Made by a program: the position numbers and the translations under genes. DNA of 64,000 nt. Source: an uncultured Actinomycetes bacterium (lineage in GTDB: Bacteria > Actinomycetota > Thermoleophilia > UBA2241). Each line of letters starts with the position of its first letter. The first letter of the stretch is position 1. Positions 12,045 through 63,085 of this stretch are shown here, one piece after another. The stretch is from assembly GCA_963755025.1 (NCBI GenBank), contig CAVWIH010000010.1, positions 1 to 64,000 of the forward strand, given 5' to 3'. The notes beneath the pieces are model-generated. The model was not told the origin of the DNA. It searched no databases and saw nothing but the letters and a program-made list of their open reading frames with translations.

Positions 12045-12592
12045 TCGACCCGATCGGCGACACCCTGGTAGGCCGCGACGAGCTGCGCGCGAAGATCGCC
12101 GAGCTCGGCGCGCAGATCTCGGCCGACTACGAGGGCAAGGACCTCGTGCTCGTGGGCGTGCTCAAGGGCGCGGTCTTCTTTCTGGCCGACCTGGCCCGCA
12201 CCCTCACCGTCCCCTGCTCGATCGACTTCATGGCCGTCACCAGCTACGGCTCGTCGACCGACTCGTCGGGCGTCGTGCGCATCCTCAAAGACCTGGACCA
12301 CCCCATCGAGGGGCGCGACATCCTGATCGTCGAGGACATCATCGACTCGGGGCTCACCCTGAGCTACCTGCTCAAGAACCTGCGTTCGCGCAAGCCGGCC
12401 TCGCTCGAGGTCTGCGCCCTGCTCACCAAGCCCGAGCGCCGGCGCATCGACCTCAAGTGCCGCTACATCGGCTTTGAGATCCCCAACGTGTTCGTCGTGG
12501 GGTACGGTCTCGACTGGGACGAACGCTATCGTACGCTCGACCATGTCGCGGGGGTGCGCGAAGAAGCCATCGCCGAGGCGGGGGGAGCCTGA
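12041..12592 (+). CDS. hpt: Hypoxanthine phosphoribosyltransferase
   Basis: VGVLKGA, SYGSST.SSG, IVEDIIDSGLTL and FVVGYGLD. Confidence 0.96.
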   Translation: MIDPIGDTLVGRDELRAKIAELGAQISADYEGKDLVLVGVLKGAVFFLADLARTLTVPCSIDFMAVTSYGSSTDSSGVVRILKDLDHPIEGRDILIVEDIIDSGLTLSYLLKNLRSRKPASLEVCALLTKPERRRIDLKCRYIGFEIPNVFVVGYGLDWDERYRTLDHVAGVREEAIAEAGGA

Positions 12593-12682
12593 GGGTTCTT
12601 TGCCCCAGTCTCAGGGGTATGCTAGGGTCAAGCGCCCACGGGGCGCCCACCTTGGCATGTTCCCCTCGTCGAGAGAGTTGAC

Positions 12683-48917: not shown

Positions 48918-49102
48918 AGACCACTCAAAAACAGGGACAACGGTAGCGAGCGATACCGACCGCGGGGCGGCGGCGCCACAGGCGCCGCCGCCCCGCGCCG
49001 CGAGCGGCCCCCACAACGGGCCGCCCGCGACGCCGGCCTCCGGCCGGCCGGCCCATCCGCCTCTCCTGCCCTGCTTTTGAGCGAAGCGATCGGAGGAACG
49101 CG

Positions 49103-49744
49103 TTGAGCGACGAGGCCACCATCTACCGCGACGAACCACTGCGGGTCTACCTCGACGACGCCGCGTCGGGCAAGCCCGCGCCCGGCGGCGGCAGCGTGTC
49201 GGCCTGCGCCGGCGCCCTGGGCGCCGGCCTGGTGTCGATGGTCTGCAACCTGACGATCGGCAAAGAGAAGTTCGCCGGCGTCGAGGAGGCCCTCACCGAC
49301 GTCGTCGCGCGCTCCGAGGCCCTGCGCGCCCGGCTCGAGGAGCTGCTGCAGGAAGACACCACCGCCTACAACGCCGTGCTCGTGGGCTATCGCCTGCCCA
49401 AGGACTCGCCCGAGCAGCAGGCCGCCCGCACCGCCCACATCCAGGCGGCGCTCAAGGTGGCCGCCAACGTGCCGCTCGAGATCGCCCGCGTGGCGCTCGA
49501 CGTCTGCCGCCTGGCCAGGACGGCGGCCGACCTCGGTAACCCGGCCGCCGTGACCGACGCCGCCATCGGCGCCATCCTGGGCGAAGGCGCGGCCCAGGGC
49601 GCCGCCCTGAACGTGCTCATCAACCTGGGCACGATCAAAGACGTCACCTACGTGGCCGCCTGTCGCGCCGAGCTCGACGGCCTTCTCGCCGAAGCAGTCG
49701 ACCTGCGCACCGAGGTCATGGCGATCACGCACACGAAGCTGTAG
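49103..49744 (+). CDS. fchA: Methenyl-THF cyclohydrolase / formiminotetrahydrofolate cyclodeaminase family
   Basis: PAPGGGS, MVCNLT, D..AY, VPL, GNP.A.TDA and NVLINL. Lies between fhs and folD. Confidence 0.9.
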   Translation: MSDEATIYRDEPLRVYLDDAASGKPAPGGGSVSACAGALGAGLVSMVCNLTIGKEKFAGVEEALTDVVARSEALRARLEELLQEDTTAYNAVLVGYRLPKDSPEQQAARTAHIQAALKVAANVPLEIARVALDVCRLARTAADLGNPAAVTDAAIGAILGEGAAQGAALNVLINLGTIKDVTYVAACRAELDGLLAEAVDLRTEVMAITHTKL

Positions 49745-49798
49745 GGGCCGCGCGGCGGCCCGCCGCGCGCAAGGCAAGCGACAAAGGACTGGACTGAC

Positions 49799-50653
49799 AT
49801 GACAGCGCAGATCATCGACGGCAAGGCGATCGCCGAGCAGGTGCGCGCCGAGATCGTCGCCGAGGTCGGCAAGCTCGCCGCGCGCGGCGTCAAGCCGGGC
49901 GTGGCGACCATCCTCGTGGGCGACGACGGCGGCGCGCAGTTCTACCGCGGCCAGATCGAGAAGAACACCGGCACAGTGGGCTTCAACTACTTCAACCACA
50001 CCCTGCCGGCCGGCACGAGCCAGGCCGAGGTGCTCGAGCTCATCGCCACGCTCAACGCCGACGCCGCCGTGCACGGCATCCTTGCCCTCATGCCCATGGC
50101 CGGCGGCATCGACCAGAACGCCGTGTTCAACGCCATCGCGCCGATCAAGGACCTCGACTGCGTGAACCCGGCCAACGTGGGCCACGTGCTGCTCGGCGAC
50201 TTTCTGTTCGCGCCGGCGACGCCGTCGGCGTGCATCGAGATCCTCGACCGCGAGGGCATCGAGCTGCAGGGCCTCGACGTGACGATCGTCAACCACTCCA
50301 ACATCGTCGGCAAGCCGGCCGCGCTGCTCTGCCTCAACCGCAACGCCTCGGTGCACGTGGTGCACGTCTTCAGCAAAGACGTGCCGGCCGCCTGCCGCGA
50401 GGCCGACGTGCTGATCTGCGCGGCGCCCGTGCAGAACCTGATCAAGCGCGACATGGTCAAGCCGGGAGCGGTCGTGGTCGACGTCACCACCATCCGCCAC
50501 GAGGGCAAGCAGGTCGGCAGCCTCGAGTTCGAGGGCGTCTGCGAGGTCGCCTCGAAGGTCACCCCGGTGCCCGGCGGCGTGGGCCCCGTGACCAACGTCA
50601 TCCTGCTCAAGAACGCCCTCGTGGCCTGCAAGGCCCAGAGCGGCGTCGCCTGA
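49799..50653 (+). CDS. folD: Methylene-THF dehydrogenase (FolD family, probably monofunctional)
   Basis: IIDGK, KDLD, PATP, SNIVGKP and TPVPGGVGP.T. Confidence 0.92.
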   Translation: MTAQIIDGKAIAEQVRAEIVAEVGKLAARGVKPGVATILVGDDGGAQFYRGQIEKNTGTVGFNYFNHTLPAGTSQAEVLELIATLNADAAVHGILALMPMAGGIDQNAVFNAIAPIKDLDCVNPANVGHVLLGDFLFAPATPSACIEILDREGIELQGLDVTIVNHSNIVGKPAALLCLNRNASVHVVHVFSKDVPAACREADVLICAAPVQNLIKRDMVKPGAVVVDVTTIRHEGKQVGSLEFEGVCEVASKVTPVPGGVGPVTNVILLKNALVACKAQSGVA

Positions 50654-50926
50654 CGCTCCGCGCGAGCACCGCGGCCGCGTGCGCGGCCCCTCGGCCGCGG
50701 CCATGCGCCGCGGGCCGTGCGGTCCACCTCTGGTCGCCCGAGCTCCCGCTCGACGCGAGCGCCGTGGTTGCGCGACTCGCCGCCGAGGCGCGACAATGGG
50801 GCGACCGGCGACTTGCGTCGCGACCGCGCGCCAAGGCGCGGCCGGCGGCGCGCGCCGAAGCGCAGCCGACGTTGATGATGGAACGCCCCCCACGGGCCGT
50901 TCGTGGTGACGAAGCGGAGTGATGCG

Positions 50927-51553
50927 ATGCCCAGGCGCGAGACAGAATCTCAGGCACACACCGGCACGGCCGTCCCCGCGCTCGACCTGACCGAGGTCGG
51001 TCGCGTGGTCGACGAGATCGACCCGCACGGCAACCTCATCGCCGTGCTGCAGCACGTGCAGGCCCACTACGGGTACCTGCCCGAGCCGGTGATCAACGAG
51101 ATCGCCCGGCTGTCGGGCGTGCCGGCCTCGCGCATCTACGGCATCGTCACCTTCTACGCCCAGTTCTCGACCGAGCCCAGCGGGCGCCACAAGGTCTTCG
51201 TGTGCCACGGCACCGCCTGCCACGTGGCCGGCGCGCCGCGCATCACCGAGGCCATCGAGCAGGAGCTCGGCGTGGCCGACGGCGGCACCACGCCCGACAT
51301 GAGCTTCACGCTCGACTCGGTGGCCTGCATGGGCGCCTGCTCGCAGGCGCCGGTCATGCGCATCGACGCCGACACGTTCGGCAACCTGACGCCCGACTCC
51401 ACCCGCAAGTACATCCTCGGCGTGCTCGACGAGCTCGGCCTGAGCGCCGCCGACCTGGCGGGCGGCGCGGCCGCCCCCGAGGACGCCGCCCAGGCGGCTC
51501 CCGACACCGCGGCCCGCACGGCAAGCGACGCAAGCGAAGGACGGCGGCCATGA
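50927..51553 (+). CDS. NuoE/HydC-like [2Fe-2S] subunit
   Basis: YGYLP, YGIVTFY, CHGTAC and ACMGACSQAP. Confidence 0.92.
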   Translation: MPRRETESQAHTGTAVPALDLTEVGRVVDEIDPHGNLIAVLQHVQAHYGYLPEPVINEIARLSGVPASRIYGIVTFYAQFSTEPSGRHKVFVCHGTACHVAGAPRITEAIEQELGVADGGTTPDMSFTLDSVACMGACSQAPVMRIDADTFGNLTPDSTRKYILGVLDELGLSAADLAGGAAAPEDAAQAAPDTAARTASDASEGRRP

Positions 51554-53442
51554 GCGAACCCACGACCGTGCCCCAGGGCGTGCGCGTCGGCGTGGTGCCG
51601 GCGCCGGGCGGCAAGCGTCGCGTGCAGGTCTGCGCCGGCACCGCCTGCGTCTTTGCCGGCTCGCTCAAGATGTTCGCCGCCTTCGAGGCCGAGATCGCCG
51701 CGGCCGGACTGGCCGACGAGGTCGAGGTCGCCATCATCGGCTGCCACGGCCTGTGCTCGCAGGGTCCGCTCGCCGTCATCGCGGGCGAGGAGACCTACTA
51801 TCCCAAGCTCAAGGCCAAGCACGTCAAGCGCATCGTCGAAGAGCACCTGGTCGGCGGCAACATCGTCGAGGACCTGCTCTACGTCGAGCCCGGCAGCGGC
51901 GAGCGCATCGCCTGCTGGCACGACATCCCCTTCTACGCCCAGCAGACGCGCATCGCCTTGCGCGACGTGGGCAGCATCCACCCCGAACGCATCGAGGAGT
52001 ACGTGGCGCGGGGCGGCTACGCCGCCGCGCGCACCGTGGTCACCGAAAAATCGCCCGAGTGGGTCATCGACGAGGTGCTCGCCTCGGGCATCCGCGGCCG
52101 CGGCGGCGCCGGCTTTCCCACCGGCCAGAAGTGGAAGTTCGCCTATAACTCGGTGAGCGACCAGAAGTACCTCATCTGCAACGGCGACGAGGGCGACCCG
52201 GGCGCGTTCATGGACGCCTCCATCATGGACGGCGACCCGCACGCCGTGATCGAGGGCATGATCATCGGCTCGTACGCGATCGGCGCCCGCGACGGCTACA
52301 TCTACGTGCGCGCCGAGTACCCGCTGGCCGTCAGCCGGCTGCGCCTGGCGATCTCGCAGGCCGAGGAGCTCGGCTACCTGGGCGACCACATGTTCGGCTC
52401 CGACTGGAGCTTTCACCTCAAGATCAAAGAGGGCGCCGGCGCCTTTGTGTGCGGCGAGGAGACGGCCCTCATGGCGAGCATCGAGGGCCGCCGCGGCATG
52501 CCGCGCTCGCGGCCGCCGTTCCCGGCGGTCTCGGGCCTGTGGGGCAAGCCCACCAACATCAACAACGTCGAGACCTTCGCCAACATCCCCTGGATCATCA
52601 CGCACGGCGCCGCGGCCTACGCGGCCCTCGGCACCGAGAAGAGCCGCGGCACCAAGGCCTTCTCGCTGGCCGGCAAGCTGGTCAACGGCGGCCTCGCCGA
52701 GGTGCCCATCGGCTCGACCATCCGCGAGATGGTCTACGGCGTGGGCGGCGGCATCAAGGACGGCCGCGAGTTCAAGGCCGTGCAGCTCGGCGGTCCCTCG
52801 GGCGGCTGCGTGCCGGCCGCGCTGATCGACACGCCGATCGACTACGAGAGCCTGGCCGCCACCGGCGCCATCATGGGCTCGGGCGGCATGGTCGTCGCCG
52901 ACGACCAGACCTGCATGGTCGACCTGGCGCGCTACTTCTTGCAGTTCACCCAGAACGAGAGCTGCGGCAAGTGCGTGCCCTGCCGCATAGGCACCAAGCG
53001 CATGCTCGAGATCCTCGAGCGCATCACCGCGGGCGAGGGCGAAGACGGCGACATCGAGCGCCTGCAGAAGCTGGCCGCCACCATCAAGCGCACCAGCCTC
53101 TGCGGACTGGGCCAGACGGCCCCCAACCCGGTGCTCACCACCATCCGCTACTTCCGCGACGAATACGAGGCCCACATCTACGGCGGAGCCTGCCCGGCGC
53201 GGGCCTGCAGCGCGCTCATCAGCTACCACATCGACCCCGAGGCCTGCACCGGCTGCGGCCTGTGCGCCAAGAAGTGCCCGGTCGGCGCGGTGAGCGGCGA
53301 GCGCAAGCAGGCGCACGCGATCGACCTCGACGTGTGCACCAAGTGCGACACCTGCCGGCAGGTCTGCAAGTTCGGCGCGGTCGAGCGGCTGACCGGCGAC
53401 GAAGTGGGCGCTCTGGCGAGCGCCGCGGCGCCGCCGGCCTGA
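51550..53442 (+). CDS. NuoF/HydB-like NAD(H)-binding FMN/FeS subunit with N-terminal [2Fe-2S] and C-terminal 2x[4Fe-4S]
   Basis: CAGTAC..GCHGLC, RGRGGAGF, NGDEGDPGAFMD, CGEETAL, GGPSGG, ESCGKCVPCR and CTGCGLC..CP / CTKCDTC..C. Confidence 0.93.
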   Translation: MSEPTTVPQGVRVGVVPAPGGKRRVQVCAGTACVFAGSLKMFAAFEAEIAAAGLADEVEVAIIGCHGLCSQGPLAVIAGEETYYPKLKAKHVKRIVEEHLVGGNIVEDLLYVEPGSGERIACWHDIPFYAQQTRIALRDVGSIHPERIEEYVARGGYAAARTVVTEKSPEWVIDEVLASGIRGRGGAGFPTGQKWKFAYNSVSDQKYLICNGDEGDPGAFMDASIMDGDPHAVIEGMIIGSYAIGARDGYIYVRAEYPLAVSRLRLAISQAEELGYLGDHMFGSDWSFHLKIKEGAGAFVCGEETALMASIEGRRGMPRSRPPFPAVSGLWGKPTNINNVETFANIPWIITHGAAAYAALGTEKSRGTKAFSLAGKLVNGGLAEVPIGSTIREMVYGVGGGIKDGREFKAVQLGGPSGGCVPAALIDTPIDYESLAATGAIMGSGGMVVADDQTCMVDLARYFLQFTQNESCGKCVPCRIGTKRMLEILERITAGEGEDGDIERLQKLAATIKRTSLCGLGQTAPNPVLTTIRYFRDEYEAHIYGGACPARACSALISYHIDPEACTGCGLCAKKCPVGAVSGERKQAHAIDLDVCTKCDTCRQVCKFGAVERLTGDEVGALASAAAPPA

Positions 53443-53680
53443 AGGCCACGCGCCACGGGTCCCCGCCCCTCGCATTGACGGACGAGGTGCGATAGTCTGC
53501 GCGCCATCGGGGGGGAGCGCCGCGACATCCTTGCGTCGCGGCGCTTGTAGGCCCACACTGTCAGAAACCGACGCCCTCGGTGGGTCCGTTGTTCGAATCC
53601 TACGAGGCTTCGCAGTAGGTTGACATTTTCCGACTGTTGCATTGAAGTAAGTCAGTCGTCTATGTGATGAGGGGTCAGGG

Positions 53681-54172
53681 GTGACGTTCAGTCTCGACGC
53701 GATCGATCGCCAGATCGTCGCACTGCTTGCAGAAGATGGCCGCATCTCTTCAGCCGAGATGACGCGTCGCATCGGTCACGTCTCCGAACGCGCCGTGCGC
53801 TATCGCATCGAGCGCCTCACGCGGGCCGGCGTCGTCAAGATCACCGCCATCGTCAACCCCCAGGCCGTCGGCTACCGGGTGACGGGCGACGTGATCATCG
53901 AAGTCTCGCCCGGCATGCTGCAAGACGTCGCCGAACAGCTCTGCGGCCTCGATAACATCAGCTACGTCGCCGGCTCCGTGGGCGACGGCGATCTGAGCGC
54001 GCAGGTCTATGCGCGCGACACCGAAGACCTGTTGCGCTTCGTCGACGAAGTCATCGGCAAGGTCAGGGGAGTCTCACGCACGCGTACAGCCGTGGTCCCC
54101 TGGAAGCTAAAAGACATCTATCAGTGGCGCATCCCCGAGACGATCGGGGAGAAGGGAGGCGGCGGACTCTAG
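53681..54172 (+). CDS. Lrp/AsnC family regulator
   Basis: LDAIDRQIVALLAEDGR...SERAVRYRIERL and GDGDL. TTGACA upstream at about 53620. Confidence 0.9.
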   Translation: MTFSLDAIDRQIVALLAEDGRISSAEMTRRIGHVSERAVRYRIERLTRAGVVKITAIVNPQAVGYRVTGDVIIEVSPGMLQDVAEQLCGLDNISYVAGSVGDGDLSAQVYARDTEDLLRFVDEVIGKVRGVSRTRTAVVPWKLKDIYQWRIPETIGEKGGGGL

Positions 54173-54261
54173 CTCAGGTAGGTGTGCAAGATTTGGGCGA
54201 CCGGCCCGGGCTCTCTCCTTACTCGCCCGGGTGGCCGTTGAAGGGATCCAAGGGGGCGATA

Positions 54262-55893
54262 GTGTCTGAAGAACTAGCTTATGCACGTAAGGCAAGCGGC
54301 CTGGTGCGCGGCCTCTCCATGATGGACGCGTTCGCGGTCGGGTTTATGAACCAGGGCCTCACGCCCAGTATCTGGGTGGTCGTCAGTCTCGGTCTTGGCG
54401 TGTTCCTCGGCGGCAACCTCATCTACGCCGCCATCATCTCGGCGGTGTTCGCCGGCATCGGCTTCCCGCTCGTCTGGGGTATCCTCGGCGGCTCCATGCC
54501 GCGCTCCGGCGGCGAGTATGTGTACAACTCGCGCATCATCCACCCGATCTACGGCATCGCGCAGAGCTTCGGCGACGCCGCGATCTGGCTGATGTGGCTG
54601 TACGTCCTCGCGCCGCTGGCCGTCGACCCGGGCCTCACCATGACGTTCAACTACATGGGCTGGAGCGGCGCCGCCAACTGGCTGACCGACTCGAGCTGGC
54701 ACACCTTCATCGTGGCGAGCCTTTTCAACGTGGTCGGCTTTTTGTTCGTGGTCTTCGGCATCAAGATCTTCGCCCGCGTGCAGAAGATCGTCATGTTCTT
54801 CGGCATCGGCGGCTGCGTCATCATCGGCGTCGTGCTGACGATCACGTCGCGCAACTCGTTCATGGCGAAGTGGAACGCCGCGGCCCTCGCCAACCACGGG
54901 CCCACCTACCACTCGTTCGTCGCTCAGGTCGGGGTGCAGGCAGGGCGCATCATGCCCACGCACACCAACTGGAGCGCCACGTTCGGCACCATGGTCGCCA
55001 TGTCGTGGCTCTTCGCGTACGCCTACTCGATCGCCTTCATCGCCGGCGAGGTCAAGCGCCCCGACAAGTCGATCATCTGGGCCAACACGTTCGCCATCGC
55101 GGTGCCGTTCCTCTTCATGCTCTGGATCGCCATCGTGCTCTACAAGACGGTCGGCTTCCAGTTCCTGAACGCCACCGCCTGGAACGACAACAACGGCAAC
55201 ACGCTGGCCTCGATGGCCCACATGCCGCACGGCACCAACTTCATCGACCTCGCCGTGTACTCGTTAGGCTCATCGGCGACCTGGGCCAAGGTCCTGGCGG
55301 CTCTCATGGGCCTCTCGTACGTGGCCTTCACCGTGTGGTGGCTGGCGCTGTCGTACCTGGCCTTCCCGCGCATCCTGTTCGCGTGGGGCATGGACCGCAT
55401 GGGCCCGAAGTGGTTCACCGACATCAACCCGCGCTTCGCGAGCCCGGTCAAGAACCACATCCTCTGCCTCGTCCTCGGCCAGAGCCTGCTGATCCTCTAC
55501 TACGCGGCCCTGCAGAATCAGATGCAGAACATCGTGCTCACCGGCATGCAGGTGACCTCGGTCTTCATCCCCACGGCAATCGCCGCCCTGTGGTTCCCGT
55601 ACTCCAAGCGGGCCAAGGGCGTCTGGGATTCGTCGCCGTACAAGAAGTGGATGTTCCTCGGCCTGCCGGTCGTGGTCTGGGGCGCCGCAGTCGACCTCGT
55701 GTACCTCGGCATCCTGCTCTACTACTTCATCTTCAACTCCGCCGCCAAGCAGTTCACCGGCCCTTCGGTGATCCTCTTCGTCGGCGTCTGGGTGCTGGGC
55801 ATCATCTGGTACTTCTCCTGGAGTGCCTACAACAAGGCGAAGTCCGGCATGGACATCTCGGCCGTCACCTACGGCGAGCTGCCTCCGGAGTGA
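54262..55893 (+). CDS. APC superfamily amino-acid permease
   Basis: About 12-14 TM helices. YARKASGLVR, MPRSGGEY, IAGEVK.P and RILFAWGMDR..P. Confidence 0.9.
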   Translation: MSEELAYARKASGLVRGLSMMDAFAVGFMNQGLTPSIWVVVSLGLGVFLGGNLIYAAIISAVFAGIGFPLVWGILGGSMPRSGGEYVYNSRIIHPIYGIAQSFGDAAIWLMWLYVLAPLAVDPGLTMTFNYMGWSGAANWLTDSSWHTFIVASLFNVVGFLFVVFGIKIFARVQKIVMFFGIGGCVIIGVVLTITSRNSFMAKWNAAALANHGPTYHSFVAQVGVQAGRIMPTHTNWSATFGTMVAMSWLFAYAYSIAFIAGEVKRPDKSIIWANTFAIAVPFLFMLWIAIVLYKTVGFQFLNATAWNDNNGNTLASMAHMPHGTNFIDLAVYSLGSSATWAKVLAALMGLSYVAFTVWWLALSYLAFPRILFAWGMDRMGPKWFTDINPRFASPVKNHILCLVLGQSLLILYYAALQNQMQNIVLTGMQVTSVFIPTAIAALWFPYSKRAKGVWDSSPYKKWMFLGLPVVVWGAAVDLVYLGILLYYFIFNSAAKQFTGPSVILFVGVWVLGIIWYFSWSAYNKAKSGMDISAVTYGELPPE

Positions 55894-55906
55894 CCTGACA
55901 GTCCGC

Positions 55907-55943
55907 GTGGGGGGCGGGAGCCCTGCTCCCGCCCCCCACTTTT
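55907..55943 (+). terminator. Terminator-like hairpin between permease and phosphoesterase
   Basis: GTGGGGGGCGGGAGC-CCT-GCTCCCGCCCCCCAC followed by TTTT. Confidence 0.75.
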
Positions 55944-55963
55944 GTTCACGAGGAGCGTGATAG

Positions 55964-56896
55964 ATGATCAAACTGTTCTACGTCACAGATATCCACGGAT
56001 CAAACGTCTGCTACCGCAAGTTCCTGAACGCGCTGCCTATCTACGGCGTCGACGTCGCCGTGCTGAACGGCGACCTGCTCGGCAAGGTGCTCATCCCCAT
56101 GGTCGAGAAGGCCGGCGGGGGCTGGGAGTGCCACCTCATGGGCATGTACACCGAGATGAACACCGAGCAGGAGCTCGCCGACGTCAAGAAGATCATCGAG
56201 AACGCGGGCTACTACTGGATTCACCAGACCCGCGAGGAGTTCGAGGCCACCAAGGCCGACCCCAAGCAGATCGACAAGCTCTTCAAGCACGCCGCCTACG
56301 AGCGCATCCAGCAGTGGCTCGAGCTCGCCGACGAGCGCCTCGAGGGCAAGAGCCACCAGATGTACATCTGCCCGGGTAACGACGACTGGTGGGAAGTCGA
56401 CGACATGATCTCCTGCATGAAGGTCATCAAGCCGTGCGACAACCTCGTCGTCGACATCGACGGTCACGAGATGGTCTCGTGCTCGCGCAGCAACCCGACC
56501 CCGTGGGACACGCCCCGCGAGGAGTCAGAAGAAGACCTCGCCGTGCACCTCGACGAGCTCTGCAAGCGCGTCAACAACTACGAAGGGGCGATCTTCAACT
56601 TCCACGTGCCGCCCCACGGCTACTCGCTCGACCTCTGCCCCAAGCTCGACAAAGACATGAAGATGTCGGCCGAAGAGAAGATCCACGCCGGCAGCCTGGG
56701 CGCCAAGCAGGTCATCGAGAAGTATCAGCCGCTGCTGGGCCTTCACGGTCACATCCACGAGTCGCGCGGCGCCCAGAAGGCCGGTCGCACGCTCATGATC
56801 AACCCCGGCAGCGAGTACTCCGAGGGCATCCTCAAGGGTGTCATCATCATGCTCGACAAGAAGAAGGTGAAGGACTACGTCTTCACGCAGGGTTGA
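55964..56896 (+). CDS. Calcineurin-like metallophosphoesterase (Icc-related)
   Basis: Complete motif set TDIHG, NGD, PGND, FHVPP and HGHIHE, plus NPGS. AGGAG RBS. Confidence 0.9.
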   Translation: MIKLFYVTDIHGSNVCYRKFLNALPIYGVDVAVLNGDLLGKVLIPMVEKAGGGWECHLMGMYTEMNTEQELADVKKIIENAGYYWIHQTREEFEATKADPKQIDKLFKHAAYERIQQWLELADERLEGKSHQMYICPGNDDWWEVDDMISCMKVIKPCDNLVVDIDGHEMVSCSRSNPTPWDTPREESEEDLAVHLDELCKRVNNYEGAIFNFHVPPHGYSLDLCPKLDKDMKMSAEEKIHAGSLGAKQVIEKYQPLLGLHGHIHESRGAQKAGRTLMINPGSEYSEGILKGVIIMLDKKKVKDYVFTQG

Positions 56897-56954
56897 TCTG
56901 CATGCAGCGCGTCCCGAGAGCCTCCTTGTGGCCCAACAAAGGCGGTAGCAGGCG

Positions 56955-57767
56955 ATGAGCACCAAGCCCTTCATCCTGCCCAAGGACATACCGATCGAGC
57001 AGTACCCCAAGCCCGAAGCCTTCCTGGCCGAGGGCAAGCGGATCGTCGACGCGGCTCGCGAAGCCGGCATCGTCATGCGGGTCATGGGCCCGCTGGCGCT
57101 GCACTACTACTTCCCCGAGCAGATCGAGCTGTACGCCAGGCTCGAGCGCTTAGGCGAGCGCTATTTCACCGACATCGACTACGCCGCGTACGGCAAGACC
57201 AGCGGCAAGATGCCCAAGTTCATGGAGACGCTCGGCTACGAGTGCGACCTGCAGACCATGATGAGCTCGGGCAAGACCCGGCACATCTACTACGCCGGTC
57301 CCGTCCCCATGATCGACGTGTTCTTCGACAAGCTCGACTACTGTCACGAGGTCCTCTACAAAGACCGCCTCGAGCTCGACCCCTACAGCGTGTCGCTCGC
57401 CGACATCATGCTGCAGAAGTTGCAGATCTGGGAGATCAACGACAAGGACCTCAAGGACATCGAGTACCTGCTCACCACCGCCGCGATCGGCGACGACGAC
57501 ACGCAGAAGATCAACCAGTCGTACATCGCCAAGCGCTTCGGCGACGACTGGGGCTTCTGGTACACGGCCACCACCAACTTCGGCCGGGTCAAAGACCACG
57601 TCGACAAGGTGGCGGCGTTCACCGAAGAGCAGAGACAACACATCAAGGACCGCTGCGACCAGTTCCTGGCGCGCATCGAGGCCGAGCCCAAGACCAAGGC
57701 GTGGACCAAGCGCGCCAAGAAGGGCACGGACAAGCTCTGGTACAACACGGGCTTCTCGGACTGGTGA
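56955..57767 (+). CDS. Uncharacterised protein with nucleotidyltransferase-fold signature
   Basis: hhGPLAh..Y, then R..TDID (DxD), a third acid in IDVF and C-terminal KD..D. This pattern is typical of Pol-beta/AbiEii-like NTases. Confidence 0.65.
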
Positions 57768-57811
57768 CAGTCGGCGGTTCCCAGCTGCGGCCCTGAGGGG
57801 GGCGGCTGCAC

Positions 57812-57872
57812 GGGCGGCGGAGGTAGCGGCGACGGTCGGGGGGCCGTCGTCGCCCCGCCGCCCTTTTTCTTT
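57812..57872 (+). terminator. Rho-independent terminator after NTase-like gene
   Basis: GGGCGGCGG...GCGGCGACGG-loop-CCGTCGTCGC..CCGCCGCCC followed by TTTTTCTTT. Confidence 0.7.
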
Positions 57873-58125
57873 GGGCGCGCACGGGCGCGCACGGGCGACA
57901 GGCGCGGTCCGTGCGCCGCACCGGCCCCCGAGCCCGCGCCACCGCTGCTGTGCGAGCCTGCGGCCCGCTCGACACGCCGCTGGGAGTACGAGTTTCTTCC
58001 TATGTATTTGCAGCGCCGCTCGAGGTGGTGTAGGTTTTCGGCGTTGTGGAACGGTCGTCGCTTGTAGCGGCGACCCCGGGGGGTTGCCGCACGGCAAACC
58101 GCGGCAGGTAGCAGGAGGGAACGCG

Positions 58126-58329
58126 TTGGCCCGAGGAACAGTCAAATGGTTCAGCAATGAGAAGGGGTACGGCTTCATCGAGCGCGAAGAAGGTGAAGAC
58201 CTGTTCGTCCACTTCTCGGAGATCCAGGTCGACGGCTACAAGACCCTGAACCAGGGTCAGGCCGTCGAGTTTGAGATCGCCCAGAGCGACAAGGGCCTGC
58301 AGGCCTCCAAGGTCGTGCCGGTCGGCTGA
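58126..58329 (+). CDS. cspA: Cold-shock protein
   Basis: [15 protein letters not shown] and DLFVHFS. TTG start after AGGAGG. Confidence 0.95.
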
Positions 58330-58354
58330 CACCGACCCGAACCTTGTACCGCTC

Positions 58355-58401
58355 CGCGACCCCGCCGGCCCCACACGGGCCGGCGGGGTCGCGTTTCGTT
58401 T
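58355..58401 (+). terminator. Rho-independent terminator after csp gene
   Basis: CGCGACCCCGCCGGCCC-loop-GGGCCGGCGGGGTCGCG followed by TTTCGTTT. Confidence 0.85.
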
Positions 58402-58538
58402 GAGATGGGCCTGGCGGGGTCGCGTTCGTAGCGAGTCCGGAGCGCCGCTCGCCACGCTCGCCACGGGCCTCTTGCCCAGCGCGTCCTGTGGTACGATTGC
58501 AGGCCCGCGCGAGCGGGGTGTGTGAGGAGGACTCGCGT

Positions 58539-58823
58539 ATGATCGACCAAAACGATGTCCGTCACGTCGCCCGTCTGGCGCGGCTGCGCCTTGAGCCCGG
58601 CGAGGCCGAGCGCATGACCACGGAGCTCGCCAAGATCCTCGAGCACATCGACAAGCTCAGCGAGCTCGATCTGAGCACGGTCGAACCCACCGCTCATGTG
58701 CTCGCGGTGACCGACGTGGTGCGGCCCGACAAACCGCGGCCCAGCCTGCCGCGCGCCGAAGCGCTGCGCAACGCGCCCGCGGTGAGCGACGACTGTTTCC
58801 GCGTGCCCCGGATGCAGTCATGA
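58539..58823 (+). CDS. gatC: Asp/Glu-tRNA amidotransferase subunit C
   Basis: VRHVARLARL, VEPT.H and NAP....FRVP. Confidence 0.95.
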   Translation: MIDQNDVRHVARLARLRLEPGEAERMTTELAKILEHIDKLSELDLSTVEPTAHVLAVTDVVRPDKPRPSLPRAEALRNAPAVSDDCFRVPRMQS

Positions 58824-60334
58824 CGGCCGGTCTCGACCCACTGCGCCTGACGGCGCGTGAAGCCCGGCGCCTGCTGACCGACGGCGAGATCGCCGCCTCC
58901 GAGCTCACCAAGACCTACCTCGACCAGATCGCGCGCGTCGAAGGCAAGGTGCACGCCTTCATCCAGGTGACCGCCGACAACGCCGCCAAGTACGCCACCG
59001 AGATCGACCAGGAGATGGGCGCCACGCGTGGCGCCCTGGCCGGCCTGCCCACCGCCATCAAAGACAACATGGTCACCGAGAGCGTCACCACCACCTGTGG
59101 CTCGAAGATGCTCGGCAACTACCAGCCGGTCTACACCGCCACGGCGGTGCGCCGCATCTGGGGCGACCATATCGTCATGCTGGGCAAAGCCAACATGGAC
59201 GAGTTCGCCATGGGTTCGTCGACAGAGAACTCGGCCTTCGGCCCCACCCACAACCCCTGGGACCTCGGCACCGTGCCGGGCGGCTCGTCGGGCGGCTCCG
59301 CCGCCGCCGTGGCGGCCGGCGAGGCGCTGTGGGCCCTGGGCTCCGACACCGGCGGTTCCATCCGTCAACCGGCGGCGCTGTGCGGCGTCGTGGGCATGAA
59401 GCCCACCTACGGCGCCGTGTCGCGCTACGGCCTCATCGCCTTTGCCAGCTCGCTCGACCAGATCGGGCCGCTCACCCGCACGGTCTACGACTGCGCCCTG
59501 CTGCTGCGCCGCATCGTCGGTCGCGACCCCTGCGACTCGACCTCGGTGGCCCTGCCCGGCGAGATCGAGCTGCCCACCGCCGAGCGCCTCGACGGCCTGC
59601 GCTTCGGCATTCCCGCCGAGTACGTGGCGACCGGCATCGAGCCCGGTGTGCTGGCCCGCTTCGAAGCCACCGTGGCCCTCATCGAAGAGCTCGGCGCGAC
59701 CTGCGTCGAGATCAGCCTGCCGCACACCGAGTACGCCCTGCCGGCCTACTACATCATCGCGCCGGCCGAGGCCAGCGCGAACCTGGCGCGCTTCGACGGC
59801 GTGCGCTACGGCTACCGTTCGGAGCACGCCGCCGACCTCACCGAGATGTACGAAGCCACCCGCGGCGAGGGCTTCGGCCCCGAGGTCAAGCGCCGCATCA
59901 TGATCGGCACGCACGCCCTCTCGTCGGGCTACTACGACGCCTACTACGGCCAGGCCCAGCGGGTGCGCACGCTCGTGCGGCGCGACTTCGAGACGGCTTT
60001 CGCCCAGGTCGACCTGATCGTCTCACCGACCTCGCCCACGGTCGCCTTTGGCCTGGGCACGCGCACCGCCGACCCGCTCGCCATGTACCAGAGCGACATC
60101 TGCACGATCCCCGTGAACCTGGCGGGGCTGCCGGCGATCTCCATACCGTGCGGCCTGGCGGGCCACCTGCCGGTCGGCTTTCAGCTCATGGGGCCGGCCT
60201 TCTCCGAGAACCGCCTGCTGAGCGCGGCCCACGCCCTCGAAGGGGCGATCGGCTTCAGCGCCGTGCCCACCTTCACCGACTCGCGCGCCGCGGCGGGCGG
60301 GCCGGGCGGCACAACGGCCGAGGAGCGCTCATGA
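58820..60334 (+). CDS. gatA: Asp/Glu-tRNA amidotransferase subunit A
   Basis: IKDN, NMDEFAMGSSTE, GGSSGGS, GSDTGGSIRQP and EVKRRI. Confidence 0.97.
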   Translation: MTAGLDPLRLTAREARRLLTDGEIAASELTKTYLDQIARVEGKVHAFIQVTADNAAKYATEIDQEMGATRGALAGLPTAIKDNMVTESVTTTCGSKMLGNYQPVYTATAVRRIWGDHIVMLGKANMDEFAMGSSTENSAFGPTHNPWDLGTVPGGSSGGSAAAVAAGEALWALGSDTGGSIRQPAALCGVVGMKPTYGAVSRYGLIAFASSLDQIGPLTRTVYDCALLLRRIVGRDPCDSTSVALPGEIELPTAERLDGLRFGIPAEYVATGIEPGVLARFEATVALIEELGATCVEISLPHTEYALPAYYIIAPAEASANLARFDGVRYGYRSEHAADLTEMYEATRGEGFGPEVKRRIMIGTHALSSGYYDAYYGQAQRVRTLVRRDFETAFAQVDLIVSPTSPTVAFGLGTRTADPLAMYQSDICTIPVNLAGLPAISIPCGLAGHLPVGFQLMGPAFSENRLLSAAHALEGAIGFSAVPTFTDSRAAAGGPGGTTAEERS

Positions 60335-61806
60335 GCGCCTGGGAGCCGGTCATCGGCCTCGAGGTCCACGTCGAGCTCGACACCGCGACCAAGATGTTCT
60401 GCGGCTGCGCGGTGACCAAGGGCGACGAGCCCAACACGCACACCTGCCCGGTCTGCCTGGCCCACCCGGGGGCGCTGCCGGTGGTCAACGAGCGCGCCGT
60501 CGAGTACGCCGCGCGCATCGCGCTGGCCCTGGGCTGCACGGTGCGGCCGCGCAGCATCTTCCACCGCAAGAACTACTTCTATCCCGACCTGCCCAAGGCC
60601 TATCAGATCAGCCAGTACGACGAGCCCCTGGCCGTGGCCGGTTCGTTCGACTACTGGGTGGGCGAGCGCAAGCTCTCGTGTCGCATCAACCGGGTGCACA
60701 TGGAAGAAGATGCCGCCAAGCTCATCCACGCGGGCGGCGAGGCCGGGCGCATCGCCGGCTCCGACTACTCCATGGTCGACTTCAACCGCGGCGGCACGCC
60801 GCTCATCGAGATCGTCGGCGAGCCCGACATTCCCTCGCCCGAAGCCGCCCGCGAGTTCCTGCAGCAGCTGCGCAACCTGGTCGTCGGCCTCGGCGTGAGC
60901 GAGTGCAACATGGAAGAAGGCCAGATCCGCTGGGACGCCAACCTGAGCGTGCGGCCGGCCGGCAGCACCGAGCTCGGCACGCGCACCGAGCTCAAGAACA
61001 TGAACAGCTTCCGCTACCTGCAGCAGGCCCTCGAGGCCGAGTTCCCGCGCCAGGTCGCCGTGCTCGAAGCCGGCGGCGCCATCGGCCAGGAGACCCTGCA
61101 CTTCGACCCCGAGACCGGCGTCACCACGCCGCTGCGCTCCAAAGAAGAGGCCCACGACTACCGCTACTTCCCCGAACCCGACCTCGTGCCGCTGACCACG
61201 AGCGAGGCCTGGATCGACGCCGTGCGCGCCGCGCTGCCCGAACTGCCCGCGGCCCGCGTCGAGCGCTTCAGCACCCAGTACGGGCTGTCGCGCTACGACG
61301 CCGCGGTGCTCGGTGGCGGGGCGGCCATGGCGGCCTTCTACGAAGAGCTCGTGGCCGAGGGCACCGACCCCAAGCTGGCCGCCAACTGGGCCATGGGCGA
61401 GTACTCGGCGCACCTGAACGCGGCCGGCCTCGAACCCGGCCACGGCCACGTGACCGCGCCGCGCCTGGCGGCCCTGCTGCGCCTCGTGACCGGCGGTCAG
61501 GTCTCCGGCACGGCCGCCAAGCAGGTCTTCGCCTACATGGTCGACGAGCGCGGCGAGCCGGCCGACATAGTGGCCCGCCACGACCTGGGCCAGGTCTCCG
61601 ACTCGAGCGAGCTCGAAGCCGCCGTGGCGGCCGTGCTGGCCGCGCACCCCGCGCAGGTCGAGCAGTACCACGCCGGCAAAGAGGCGCTGGCCGGCTTCTT
61701 CGTGGGCCAGGTCATGAAAGCGACGCAGGGCAAAGGCAACCCCCAGCTCGTCGGCGAGCTCGTGCGAGCGGCGCTCGCCGGCGACGAGCGTAAAGGACCG
61801 GCATGA
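60331..61806 (+). CDS. gatB: Asp/Glu-tRNA amidotransferase subunit B
   Basis: IGLEVH, KNYFYPDLPK, HMEED, YRYFPEPDL and GQVMK. Confidence 0.97.
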   Translation: MSAWEPVIGLEVHVELDTATKMFCGCAVTKGDEPNTHTCPVCLAHPGALPVVNERAVEYAARIALALGCTVRPRSIFHRKNYFYPDLPKAYQISQYDEPLAVAGSFDYWVGERKLSCRINRVHMEEDAAKLIHAGGEAGRIAGSDYSMVDFNRGGTPLIEIVGEPDIPSPEAAREFLQQLRNLVVGLGVSECNMEEGQIRWDANLSVRPAGSTELGTRTELKNMNSFRYLQQALEAEFPRQVAVLEAGGAIGQETLHFDPETGVTTPLRSKEEAHDYRYFPEPDLVPLTTSEAWIDAVRAALPELPAARVERFSTQYGLSRYDAAVLGGGAAMAAFYEELVAEGTDPKLAANWAMGEYSAHLNAAGLEPGHGHVTAPRLAALLRLVTGGQVSGTAAKQVFAYMVDERGEPADIVARHDLGQVSDSSELEAAVAAVLAAHPAQVEQYHAGKEALAGFFVGQVMKATQGKGNPQLVGELVRAALAGDERKGPA

Positions 61807-63085
61807 GCGAGTTCCGCCCAGGCGATCTGTCGAGCTTCATCATCGCCGAAGAGGCGCCGGCCGAAGGCCCGCCGGTGCGCATCGACGACACCACCCTGCG
61901 CGACGGCGAGCAGACCGCCGGCGTCGTGTTCTCGAACCACGAGAAGATCCGCATAGCGCGCCTGCTGGGCGACGTCGGCGTGCACCAGATCGAGGTCGGC
62001 ATCCCGGCCATGCTGGGCGACGAAAAGGCGGCCATCGCGCAGATCGTCGAGCTTGGTCTCAAGCCCTCGATCCTCGCCTGGAACCGCGCCGTCATCTCCG
62101 ACATCCAGCACTCCATCGACTGCGGCGTCGACGCCGTCGCCATCTCCATGTCGGCGAGCGACATCCACATCGAGCACAAGCTGGCCAAATCGAGGCAGTG
62201 GGTGCTCGACCAGATCCGCGAGTGCGTGGCCTTCGCCAAAGAGGCCGGCGTGTACGTGTCGGTGAACGCCGAAGACGCCTCGCGCGCCGACCTCGAGTTT
62301 CTGCTGCGCTTCGGGCGGGCCGCCAAGAAGAGGGCGCCGACCGCCTGCGCTTCTGCGACACGCTGGGCATTCTCGACCCCTTCGACACCTACAACGTGAT
62401 CAGCTTCCTCACCCGCCAGGGCCTCGAGATCGAGATGCACACCCACGACGACTTCGGCATGGCCACGGCCAACGCCCTGGCCGGCATCAAGGCCGGCGCG
62501 ACCTACGTGAACACCACGGTCAACGGCCTCGGCGAGCGCGCCGGCAACGCCGCCCTCGAAGAGGTCGTCATGGCCCTCAAGTTCCTGGGCCACGTCGACC
62601 TGGGGCTGCACACCTCGCAGTTCCGCGAGCTGTGCGAGTACGTGGCCGCCGCCTCGGCGCGCTCGATCCCCTCGTGGAAGAGCATCGTGGGCACCAACGT
62701 CTTCGCCCACGAATCGGGCATCCACGCCGACGGCGTCATCAAGAACCCGCTCAACTACGAGGCTTACGCCCCCGAAGACGTGGGCCTCGAGCGGCAGATC
62801 GTGGTGGGCAAGCACTCGGGCTCGCGCACCATCTACCGCAAGTTCCAGGAGTTCGGCATCGAGCTCTCCGACCACGACGCCAGCGAGATCCTGAAGATGG
62901 TCCGCCAGACGGCGATCGAGCTCAAGCGCGCGCTGTTCTCCAAGGAGATCATGTACATCTACCAGGACTACATCGCGAGTCTCGCCGCCGCCGCCGAAGC
63001 CGATGCCGCCGAGGCCCCCACTGCCGAGGCCCCCGCGGCCGCCGCCGGCGGCGCCGTCACGGCCACGCCGGCCGCCCGCGACTAG
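61803..63085 (+). CDS. Homocitrate synthase-like (NifV/AksA-type, DRE-TIM) enzyme; frameshift near 62328
   Basis: DTTLRDGEQ, EDASR, HTHDDFGMATAN, GLGERAGNA, HESGIH and GKHSG. No LeuA regulatory domain. Confidence 0.85.

Follow-up and report, generated by a model that had tools for sequence, protein, structure and literature searches.

A permease, metallophosphoesterase and nucleotidyltransferase-fold gene trio set amid choline and amine breakdown genes in soil and peat bacteria

Gene content and layout of the locus

Within the window (the whole stretch of DNA analysed, 64,000 nucleotides), the locus at 53,681–57,872 holds four intact open reading frames in the same orientation (53681-54172, 54124-55893, 55964-56896 and 56955-57767). 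The genes and associated features are as follows.

53619..53624, + strand: TTGACA hexamer ahead of the regulator gene, no more than promoter-like, as read from the sequence
53681..54172, + strand: Lrp/AsnC-family regulator, 163 aa (PF01037 49.2 bits, PF13404 42.7 bits)
54262..55893, + strand: APC-superfamily permease, 543 aa, pre-TM1 motif YARKASGLVRG (PF13520 42.8 bits, cut-off 27)
55907..55939, + strand: GC-rich hairpin (15-pair stem) and then TTTTGTT, in the permease-phosphoesterase spacer
55964..56896, + strand: divergent metallophosphoesterase, 310 aa, whose dinuclear-metal site is intact (motifs, model, structural neighbours)
56955..57767, + strand: predicted Pol-beta-fold nucleotidyltransferase (NTase)-like protein, 270 aa (model and motifs; no curated family)
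57812..57872, + strand: closing hairpin with T-run, terminator-like (fold -72.9 kcal/mol, z -2.67)

For the permease, GTG 54262 is the most likely start; it lies inside the open reading frame 54124-55893 behind AAGGGGG and yields 543 aa in the frame check; protein collection entry P0272 is an identical 543-aa call. An initial annotation had described the locus as a four-gene module with its own TTGACA promoter and a closing terminator. The four co-oriented genes are real, but the core of the locus is the permease, metallophosphoesterase and NTase-fold gene, a conserved three-gene unit beside which the regulator is exchanged. The gene order including the Lrp/AsnC regulator is kept at a 75%-identical locus (L050), and Lrp stands beside the trio only in L050 and L052 among the 20 loci fetched, with a DeoR- or IclR-type regulator, or none, in its place elsewhere. 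The Lrp gene is just the local, variable regulator of the trio, and its product passed none of the NCBIfam equivalog cut-offs. The hexamer is present, but a sigma-70 scan of 53300-58300 returned 0 promoter-like sites; the closing element folds with the energy given above, but a motif scan did not list its hairpin and T-run.

The hairpin between permease and phosphoesterase, omitted from the initial annotation, is stronger than the closing one: the 77-nt RNA separating the two genes had a minimum free energy of -45.1 kcal/mol (z -5.43), which none of 200 shuffles equalled. This element is terminator-like or attenuator-like; the orthologous spacer of L050 also has a GC hairpin, but without the T-run. 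The GC content over 53500-57499 was 0.616-0.644, compared to about 0.69-0.75 upstream. This fall was confined to codon positions 1 and 2, while GC3 of the four-gene region (0.82-0.95) matched that of neighbouring genes, so the fall stems from the amino acids encoded rather than from foreign codon usage.

Folds and motifs of the trio proteins

The metallophosphoesterase is divergent, scoring just 18.5 bits against PF00149 (cut-off 21.5). The five metal motifs first noticed in the single sequence were each invariant in 22/22 family members (D9xH11, G36D37, G138N139D140D141, H214 and G262H263xH265). Motif III thus reads GNDD; in metallophosphoesterases it is usually GNH[DE]. The model (pLDDT 94.2) carries an inserted cap region at about residues 42-135 and had as structural neighbours aq_1956 (Z 24.1), TT1561 (Z 23.2) and MPPED2 (Z 20.8), with further matches to Rv0805 (Z 18.0) and GpdQ (Z 17.4), the phosphodiesterases MPPED2, Rv0805 and GpdQ being the nearest characterised folds. 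There was also weak sequence likeness (E 0.0027) to entry 3qfm, which we take to be an Ap4A hydrolase.

No Pfam or NCBIfam family scored above cut-off with the 270-aa protein. Its 850 homologues at E<=0.001 were, where named, all 'hypothetical protein', and the family comprises 1534 cluster representatives at 50% identity; one look-alike cluster in the ESM Atlas was 71% archaeal, the sole hint relating to the archaeal resemblance that the initial annotation proposed for the permease. The protein is predicted to have a Pol-beta nucleotidyltransferase fold, as shown by a model with pLDDT 95.5 whose top Foldseek match was ANT(2'')-Ia (E 3.1e-5). The best structural matches were ANT(2'')-Ia (Z 11.9, 154 residues aligned, rmsd 3.3), MenT1 (Z 11.4) and LnuA (Z 9.7). 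In 95 sequences the hG[GS], DxD and third-Asp motifs of the family were conserved at >=90%, as was the fuller set G45..A48, R69..T-D73-I-D75, D121-V-F123 and K164-D165..D168. Both the fold and the motif layout proposed in the initial annotation held up, as did its statement that no antitoxin sits beside the gene: none was found as a neighbour, and no PADLOC defence or antitoxin model matched the protein at E<=0.01. With a pI of 5.66 the protein is acidic (the family median is 6.08, and 14/95 members exceed pI 8), which speaks weakly against a nucleic-acid substrate.

The permeases share the pre-TM1 motif [FY]xR[KRQ][AS][ST]GL in 19/20 cases inspected; the exception (L050) had no regex match among the initial 330 residues of an over-extended open reading frame. 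The segment R[KRQ][AS][ST]GL, with its invariant Ser/Thr, was retained even between permease paralogues only 24% identical.

Linkage and metabolic neighbourhoods

Near-obligate co-inheritance of the trio genes was observed. The source genome has three diverged copies of the trio, and a sample of 301 genomes from the phylum contained the NTase family in 42 cases and the phosphoesterase subfamily in 41, all of which fell within those 42. The phosphoesterase gene lay within 300 bp of the NTase gene at 44/60 NTase places in this sample. In other genomes the two were adjacent at 19 of the 20 fetched loci and within 5.2 kb at all 20, accompanied in 20/20 by a permease of the same type (one a contig-end fragment, two on the opposite strand). 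The pair overlapped by <=4 nt or was spaced by <=6 nt at 16/20 loci, counts that depend on the start codons we chose, and the pairwise identities of permease, phosphoesterase and NTase correlated across loci (r 0.91 to 0.97). Recurrence of the NTase with the other two genes was almost without exception (20 loci, 301 genomes). A literature search found no description of the trio, in keeping with the earlier impression that no system of this composition has been characterised. Contigs from RNA libraries of two studies, in which carried-over DNA is possible, cover all three genes, and two near-identical pieces span the phosphoesterase-NTase junction (X3 record 15, 426 nt with 2 differences; X9 record 30, 451 nt with 5 differences).

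Soil and peat bacteria house the trio amid choline and amine breakdown genes, most of its neighbours serving the catabolism of choline, betaine, methylamine or gamma-glutamyl-amines. In the window, FTHFS, FchA-like and FolD genes (a tetrahydrofolate C1 cluster) lie just upstream, and the other two copies in the source genome are flanked by choline/ethanolamine kinases and an MtbB-like gene. Elsewhere, dimethylglycine-dehydrogenase-like genes and a choline kinase follow the trio (L048, L049, L051), choline-sulfatase-like, OpuAC, aldehyde dehydrogenase and GCV_T/DAO genes occur in the flanks (L056, L057, L059-L064), and L052, L054 and L055 have glutamine-synthetase-like genes beside it. Such surroundings suggest a role in the metabolism of choline, ethanolamine and methylamine, and fit a system that would import an amino compound carrying a phosphoryl or nucleotidyl group and process it. 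The initial annotation had raised this option together with a feast/famine regulator; the option fits, but the regulator lies outside the conserved unit (Lrp in 2/20 loci). Overall, what the initial annotation observed holds, and its reading of the locus has partial support.

Candidate functions and comparison with known systems

We tentatively propose, at somewhat less than even confidence, that an imported small molecule of amino-alcohol type is first nucleotidylated by the NTase and afterwards hydrolysed by the phosphoesterase. The trio would then be a self-contained uptake-and-processing cassette, for which we infer the substrate, the sequence of the two reactions and the purpose of both. 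The APC permease would take up a small nitrogenous molecule, an amino-alcohol or amine, which in the source organism would most likely be choline or a relative. The cytoplasmic NTase-fold enzyme, using an NTP and Mg2+ held by D73, D75 and D121, would nucleotidylate this molecule at a hydroxyl or a phosphate, as ANT(2'')-Ia and LnuA do with antibiotics, and the metallophosphoesterase would next cut the resulting phosphodiester or diphosphate. Both steps together may trap the substrate or activate it; a phospho-amino-alcohol, for instance phosphocholine, might result and could feed the neighbouring demethylation and C1-tetrahydrofolate genes. In a published pathway (PMC12155760), choline is phosphorylated prior to corrinoid-dependent demethylation, so hydroxyl activation is a known theme in such metabolism.

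The proposal is supported by the fold and active-site motifs of the NTase, the invariant metal ligands of the phosphoesterase, the linkage of the three genes and the metabolic neighbourhoods, with the RNA-library contigs as a hint of expression. Several observations count against it. Across differing metabolic neighbourhoods, both enzymes keep many non-core residues invariant or almost so, a pattern no less compatible with a constant target (the permease or a nucleotide) than with a small molecule that changes. A choline kinase already stands beside the trio in L048, L049, L051 and the copy on contig C36 of the source genome, which would make a second phosphocholine route redundant. Counting against the small-molecule reading are also the score of MenT1, a tRNA-modifying toxin (Z 11.4 vs 11.9 for ANT(2'')-Ia), and a permease paralogue on contig C37, 83% identical, that neither enzyme adjoins.

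The same orphan permease weighs against the reading preferred in the initial annotation, which we consider rather unlikely: the NTase would nucleotidylylate a cytoplasmic residue of the permease or a small partner and the phosphoesterase would remove the group, gating uptake by analogy with AmtB-GlnK-GlnD. Both enzymes track the permease rather than any single catabolic pathway, their surfaces outside the catalytic site show strong conservation whatever the context, all three proteins co-vary as described above, and the pre-TM1 motif with its invariant Ser/Thr is cytoplasmic. However, that motif may be no more than the standard N-terminal motif of APC proteins, a sensor domain is lacking in the NTase, and the protein-AMPylating NTases GlnE, GlnD and DrrA did not appear in the listed top 50 structural matches, an absence compatible with either reading. 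The likeness of the enzyme pair to GlnD/GlnE is an analogy; the nearest structural relatives of the modelled NTase are small-molecule and tRNA nucleotidyltransferases. Unlikely, too, is a role for both enzymes in one pathway with no cycle, where the phosphoesterase would free choline or ethanolamine from imported phospho-esters (for example phosphocholine or glycerophosphocholine, in parallel to the neighbouring choline-sulfatase-like genes) and the NTase would perform a separate LicD/CDP-alcohol-type phosphotransfer or cytidylyl transfer. Choline-sulfatase-like genes do adjoin the trio in L057, L059, L062, L063 and L064, DeoR-type regulators precede it in L048, L049 and the C36 copy, the glycerophosphodiesterase GpdQ has the fold of the phosphoesterase, and LicD-like FKRP weakly matches the NTase structure (Z 5.3). 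Yet the LicD Pfam family gave no match, and the pairing, with stop and start codons often overlapping and 44/60 within 300 bp, is tighter than independent steps predict; no APC permease is known to carry phosphodiesters.

It is improbable that the NTase makes a small nucleotide messenger that the phosphoesterase degrades and that gates the permease. Cyclic-nucleotide synthases have the NTase fold too, the phosphoesterase resembles the cyclic-nucleotide phosphodiesterases Rv0805 and MPPED2 and, weakly, 3qfm, and CBS-pair genes occur in two loci (L054 and L055), but these are no constant neighbour, CD-NTase and cGAS-like structures match weakly (Z about 3.7) and the permease has no visible receptor domain. 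A toxin-antitoxin or phage-defence role, with the phosphoesterase as antidote, is very improbable. MenT1, MenT3 (TglT; Z 9.3), MenT4 (Z 9.0) and AbiEii (DUF1814) toxins have the fold in common with the window NTase (Z 9.0-11.4), which, unlike them, has no antitoxin neighbour and no PADLOC match at E<=0.01 or Pfam AbiEii/DUF1814 match at E<=1, is acidic and is operonic with transport and catabolic genes. Its distribution is family-wise, its genes lie inside catabolic operons alongside a permease, GC3 is native and one genome holds three diverged copies.

Small-molecule processing, the reading we favour, draws its closest structural parallel from ANT(2'')-Ia (AadB) and LnuA, which like the window NTase are small cytoplasmic proteins combining a Pol-beta NTase core with a helical C-terminal domain. 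A profile places the G..A and DxD motifs of the NTase on those of ANT(2'')-Ia (E 0.48, alone not significant). The two act on antibiotics, are 14-15% identical to the window NTase with no significant sequence match and are ~90 residues shorter, whereas the window NTase is linked to a permease and phosphoesterase in catabolic clusters. Its sole Pfam match was PF14907 (NTP_transf_5, 'uncharacterised nucleotidyltransferase') at 12.4 bits and E 0.11, far under the gathering score; a 30%-identical paralogue in the same genome (L012) reached 31.8 bits (cut-off 31.2), and 19% of members in one look-alike Atlas cluster carry this family. The phosphoesterase shares its metal motifs with its top structural matches aq_1956 (2yvt), TT1561 (1uf3) and MPPED2 at 15-17% identity but adds the ~90-residue inserted cap; aq_1956 and TT1561 are structural-genomics proteins whose entry titles state no function.

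AmtB-GlnK-GlnD comprises a channel, a PII protein and a Pol-beta-type uridylyl/adenylyl-transferase with a removing activity. The trio would resemble it only in possible working, as a nitrogen-compound transporter with an NTase-fold 'writer' and an 'eraser'; it has no PII protein, HD or ACT domains or ammonium channel, and no sequence relation was found between the two. In the MthK-MthB-MthC-MthA choline (phosphocholine):THF methyltransferase system and the Lic pathway, the choline hydroxyl is activated first (PMC12155760). In that paper the terms phosphoesterase, nucleotidyl and permease occur 0 times and the Mth transporter is of the EamA family, while the trio has an APC permease; LicD (PF04991) of the Lic pathway did not match the trio proteins. 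The trio copies on C36 are adjoined by choline-kinase-like and MttB/MtbB-like genes, recalling the Mth system.

Co-inheritance of two enzymes and a permease

The initial annotation implied that homologues of the nucleotidyltransferase (NTase)-fold protein encoded by the module's last gene should recur beside a metallophosphoesterase and an APC permease. This was borne out for the two enzymes in 41 of 42 genomes and for all three genes (the trio) at 20 of 20 loci taken from other genomes. A phylum sample of 301 genomes, with two unpublished genomes (G018 and G120) included in the tallies, was searched at thresholds of E<=1e-10 for the NTase and E<=1e-30 for the phosphoesterase subfamily. The NTase family was found in 42 genomes and the phosphoesterase subfamily in 41, all of which lie within the 42; the one NTase-only genome held just an NTase fragment with a stop codon. 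Once three second fragments of split hits had been merged there were 60 NTase places, 44 with a phosphoesterase within 300 bp and 7 more with one 0.3-5.1 kb away on the same contig. At the other nine no phosphoesterase lay on the contig; five of these are distant paralogues from the window's own genome, one is a pseudogene and one sits at a contig edge.

The external loci (L046-L065) are a non-random set comprising the best-scoring published NTase matches, all from this phylum. The phosphoesterase gene adjoins the NTase gene in 19 of them and lies about 5.1 kb off in one. All 20 have a same-type permease (as a contig-end fragment in L053 and partial in L052); in L046 and L047 it lies on the opposite strand. 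Both gene orders occur, and 16 of the 20 NTase/phosphoesterase pairs, with start codons of our choosing, overlap by at most 4 nt or are separated by at most 6 nt. Pairwise identities correlated between NTase and phosphoesterase (r 0.91, 20 loci) and between these and the permease (0.96 and 0.97, 19 loci), with L052, L053 and L060 left out as partial; because related genomes are not independent, the correlation shows inheritance as a unit and is no statistical proof. Relatives likewise have gene order in common; even so, the trio is retained across families whose loci span 30% to 71% GC.

The window's own genome (39 contigs, 84% complete) was surveyed by tblastn with the four module proteins, and contig C36 was found to carry two more trio sets. 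One has the order NTase-phosphoesterase-permease, its proteins being 35%, 42% and 24% identical to their window counterparts. The second set is rearranged into a phosphoesterase, a seemingly frameshifted permease and an NTase 78% identical to the window's, and is chimeric in that this window-type NTase is joined to a phosphoesterase nearest another clade (52%). This set lies at 11200-13060 (- strand) of locus L009, where the N-terminal (12054-12791) and C-terminal (11509-12396) parts of the permease occupy overlapping frames; this is a pseudogene with a frameshift or else an error of assembly. Contig C37 of the same genome encodes a solo permease 83% identical to the window's, with identical ribosome-binding site and start context (L010 4714-6363); neither phosphoesterase nor NTase adjoins it, and downstream of it are an enolase-superfamily gene and an MttB fragment.

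Together, the data show two soluble enzymes whose active sites are intact and whose ties to one another and to the permease are closer than those to any pathway downstream.

Proteins and signals of the module

The four co-oriented open reading frames at 53681..57872 are present as first annotated, and the following features are referred to below.

54262..55893, + strand: APC permease; a GTG start behind AAGGGGG is likely, and the listed start at 54124 overlaps the regulator
55907-55939: terminator-like hairpin in the permease/phosphoesterase spacer, 15 pairs followed by TTTTGTT (z -5.43), stronger than the closing hairpin and absent from the initial annotation
56955..57767, + strand: NTase-fold protein, 270 aa, Pol-beta fold by motifs and model

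The NTase-fold protein matches no curated Pfam or NCBIfam family, the best score being 12.4 bits (E 0.11) for PF14907 (NTP_transf_5), whose gathering cut-off is 31.2 bits. Its own family is large: of 1404 candidate proteins, 850 match at E<=0.001, at 50% identity the family comprises 1534 cluster representatives, and the named members, several from Thermoleophilia bins, are all called 'hypothetical protein'. Among 95 aligned members G45 of the hG[GS] motif, D73 and D75 of DxD and the third carboxylate D121 are each conserved in at least 90%, and H131, W199, R253, G257 and W262 are invariant; the aromatics reported as invariant are W199, W250, W262 and Y263. The AlphaFold2 model (pLDDT 95.5, pTM 0.92) retrieved ANT(2'')-Ia first in Foldseek (E 3.1e-5), followed by MenT1 and JHP933. 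A Foldseek-independent structure search returned eight chains at Z>=8, all titled nucleotidyltransferases or NTase-type toxins.

Structural matches of the NTase-fold protein model
Match; Z score
ANT(2'')-Ia; 11.9
MenT1; 11.4
Paracoccidioides NTase-like protein; 11.3
LnuA; 9.7
JHP933; 9.6
TglT; 9.3
MenT4; 9.0
TM1012; 8.6
FKRP; 5.3 over 139 residues

The model and the two structure searches thus confirm the NTase fold proposed for the last protein, which is assigned by motifs and predicted fold to the Pol-beta NTase superfamily. At the sequence level, phmmer against PDB sequences gave 0 matches at E<=10, and a profile search gave E 0.48 to 1 for the ANT(2'')/Lnu group. With a pI of 5.66 (family median 6.08) the protein is acidic. 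Among longer homologues there was one 485-aa protein (48% query coverage), one of five longer representatives had an N-terminal MarR-like HTH, and none was fused to a phosphoesterase, permease or kinase, so that fusions offered no Rosetta-stone clue. When NTase and phosphoesterase were modelled as a complex, the score was 0.00 in two runs without controls, a value with no bearing on binding.

Two NTase paralogues of about 30% identity in the window's own genome (L013 3629-5815, + strand; L014 4209-7646, - strand) are located at the C-termini of long frames that open with Fic_N and Fic domains, with no stop codon before the NTase part; the L014 frame also contains an MttB fragment. These frames may represent Fic-NTase fusions. 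Phosphoesterase and permease genes do not adjoin either of them.

The five metal motifs noted in the phosphoesterase are present and unchanged in 22 of 22 family members (D9xH11, G36D37, G138N139D140D141, H214 and G262H263xH265), with motif III carrying D where the superfamily GNH[DE] has H. The protein scores below the Pfam PF00149 gathering threshold (18.5 vs 21.5 bits); its C36 paralogues score 27.3 and 25.8 bits and the L047 protein 30.5. The closest folds to its model (pLDDT 94.2) are the structural-genomics proteins aq_1956 (Z 24.1) and TT1561 (Z 23.2), then the phosphodiesterases MPPED2 (20.8), Mre11, Rv0805 (18.0) and GpdQ (17.4). Matches to sequences of solved structures were weak, aq_1956 reaching E 0.00043 with a profile.

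Translation of the permease from GTG 54262 gives exactly a 543-aa database entry (P0272). The protein belongs to the APC superfamily (PF13520 at 42.8 bits, cut-off 27, spanning profile positions 15-425 of 427), and source databases label its homologues amino acid transporter or APA-family antiporter.

The regulator contains both Lrp/AsnC domains (PF13404 HTH, 42.7 bits; PF01037 RAM, 49.2 bits) and was assigned to no specific orthologue since it scored under every NCBIfam equivalog cut-off. Its inclusion in the module holds for the window, but the constant unit excludes it, as regulators vary between loci. An Lrp gene stands next to the trio in the window, in L050, where gene order is the same and the enzymes are 75% identical to the window's, and divergently in L052. 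A DeoR-type gene precedes the trio in L048, L049 and the C36 copy, and IclR-type genes lie near it in L057 and L063.

GC content is 0.62-0.64 across the four genes vs about 0.69-0.75 upstream. GC3 is 0.82-0.95, like the neighbours, and the drop lies in codon positions 1 and 2, indicating that the proteins differ in composition, as had been noticed, while codon usage is native. A foreign island was rejected on the native GC3 and the family-wise conservation of the trio.

The annotated TTGACA hexamer is found at 53619, but no full sigma-70-like promoter was called around it; the closing terminator, a hairpin with a T-run, does exist. The orthologous spacer of L050 holds a GC hairpin without a T-run. 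An Rfam search over 53300-58200 at E<=1 gave no riboswitch and a chance-level snoRNA as its sole match. Word matches located the stretch in metagenomes of soil, peat and wetland as well as in seven RNA libraries. Four RNA libraries, belonging to two studies, yielded contigs over the permease, phosphoesterase and NTase genes; such contigs may derive from carried-over DNA and show neither transcript ends nor expression levels. Records 10 and 14 of one contig set (X3) have 0 differences to the window, and the phosphoesterase-NTase junction is bridged by X3 record 15 (426 nt, 2 differences) and by record 30 of a second set, X9 (451 nt, 5 differences). In two runs of one study the contigs end at 55869, just ahead of the internal hairpin; other runs cover the permease-phosphoesterase spacer, and one 93%-alike contig bridges it. 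The RNA contigs do not decide whether the 55907-55939 hairpin terminates transcription.

Amine-catabolic surroundings of the trio

Examined locus by locus, 11 of the 20 external loci and the C36 copies lie in choline/betaine-type settings. The C36 copies are flanked by two choline/ethanolamine-kinase-like genes, another amino-acid permease and an MtbB-like gene. A dimethylglycine-dehydrogenase-like gene (DAO and GCV_T) and a choline/ethanolamine kinase come after the permease in L048, L049 and L051. A choline-sulfatase-like gene stands beside the trio in L057, L059, L062, L063 and L064, with aldehyde dehydrogenase, DAO, GCV_T, FTHFS or MTHFR nearby. In four loci of one family a gene for an OpuAC betaine/choline-binding protein directly abuts the NTase gene, and no ABC membrane or ATPase gene adjoins it among the genes scanned.

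L056 9901-10893: OpuAC gene
L059 10233-11288: OpuAC gene
L060 8500-9513: OpuAC gene
L061 3831-4793: OpuAC gene

Elsewhere, L052, L054 and L055 have glutamine-synthetase-like genes, accompanied by amidohydrolase, GATase and formamidase genes and a PucR-type regulator, and L046, L047, L050, L053, L058 and L065 have no clear theme. In the window, the module comes straight after a stretch (47235-53442) of tetrahydrofolate C1 genes (FTHFS, an FchA-like cyclodeaminase domain and FolD) and then NuoE-like and NuoF-like iron-sulfur flavoprotein genes. On its downstream side are a cold-shock gene and gatCAB.

The MtbB-like dimethylamine methyltransferase gene on C36 (L009 8939-10339, - strand; PF09505 E 1.6e-131) has one in-frame TAG (L009 9281-9283) and then stays in frame, the profile match stopping at the TAG (position 353 of 463). 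A PylS C-terminal domain gene (277.8 bits, above cut-off) is found at 75537-76259 of contig C10, about 11.5 kb past the window's end on the same contig; going by these genes, the organism probably decodes UAG as pyrrolysine. Also in the window, an HMGL-like domain at 61803-63085 is spread over two overlapping frames (profile 2-157 in 61803-62399; 152-259 plus HCS_D2 in 62198-63085), which suggests a homocitrate/isopropylmalate-synthase-like gene split by a frameshift or a sequencing error.

Candidate functions and known families

In soils, peat and guts, choline, ethanolamine and methylated amines serve as major sources of nitrogen and C1 units, and the production of methane and trimethylamine is fed by their turnover. 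We rate the trio as an operon for catabolic uptake whose enzyme pair is near-obligate and undescribed, and see a real chance that it is something more unusual. The mechanism that we tentatively prefer, while holding it to be doubtful, would have the permease import an amino-alcohol-type compound, the NTase O-nucleotidylate it and the phosphoesterase cleave the nucleotidylated product, with the substrate thus trapped, or activated, for the demethylation and C1 genes nearby. This preference follows from the likeness to NTases that act on small molecules, from the acidic charge, from a partner that resembles phosphodiesterases and from a precedent for activation of the choline hydroxyl. For the latter, the main text of PMC12155760 describes an acetogen that phosphorylates choline ahead of corrinoid-dependent demethylation; phosphoesterase, nucleotidyl and permease do not occur in that text. 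Against import and nucleotidylation of a small molecule stand the high conservation of non-catalytic residues across differing contexts, the choline kinases beside some trio copies, the nearly equal scores of MenT1 and ANT(2'')-Ia and the lone permease on C37.

The initial annotation had pictured, as one option, a nucleotidylation switch acting on the transporter or another protein. A cytoplasmic motif ahead of TM1 with a conserved Ser/Thr, found in 19 of 20 permeases inspected, would suit such a target, although it may be an ordinary APC N-terminal motif, and we regard the switch as improbable. We would give slightly more room, while still thinking it rather improbable, to a broader idea in which NTase and phosphoesterase are accessory enzymes dedicated to the APC permease, linking its transport to nucleotide chemistry: either an amine or amino alcohol is nucleotidylated at the membrane and then released, or the permease is reversibly nucleotidylylated. 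The former would resemble group translocation and can be compared to vectorial acylation by FadD. The native GC3, the acidic NTase and the lack of a PADLOC match make a role as toxin or in defence unlikely, and the gene's neighbours are the phosphoesterase and permease, with no antitoxin beside it, as first described.

The trio is a nearly always co-inherited unit inside amine-catabolic islands, seen in environmental RNA libraries, and marks a missing step or missing control point in choline/amine metabolism. A large NTase family without a curated model gains its first firm functional partners, and a 'hypothetical protein' becomes a hypothesis that can be tested at the bench, with candidate substrates and mutants defined. 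Should the enzymes act on or with the permease, this would be a new principle of transporter coupling; either form of the accessory-enzyme idea would be a so far undescribed mode of coupling or control of a secondary transporter, widespread in soil Actinomycetota and beyond.

As the initial annotation supposed, no functional description of the trio was found in literature on the trio, PF14907 and the choline pathway. The NTase lacks the HD, ACT or second NTase domain of GlnD/GlnE-type enzymes, and no PII gene was found among ORFs of 50000-61000. It has no Pfam match at E<=1 to LicD, and FKRP, of the LicD/FKRP phospho-alcohol transferases, is a weak fold match (Z 5.3 over 139 residues). For AbiEii/MenT (DUF1814) toxins there was no Pfam match at E<=1 and no PADLOC match at E<=0.01, while a likeness in fold stays (Z 9-11.4). 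The ANT(2'')/Lnu antibiotic NTases are alike in structure, whereas their sequence similarity to the window NTase is not significant.
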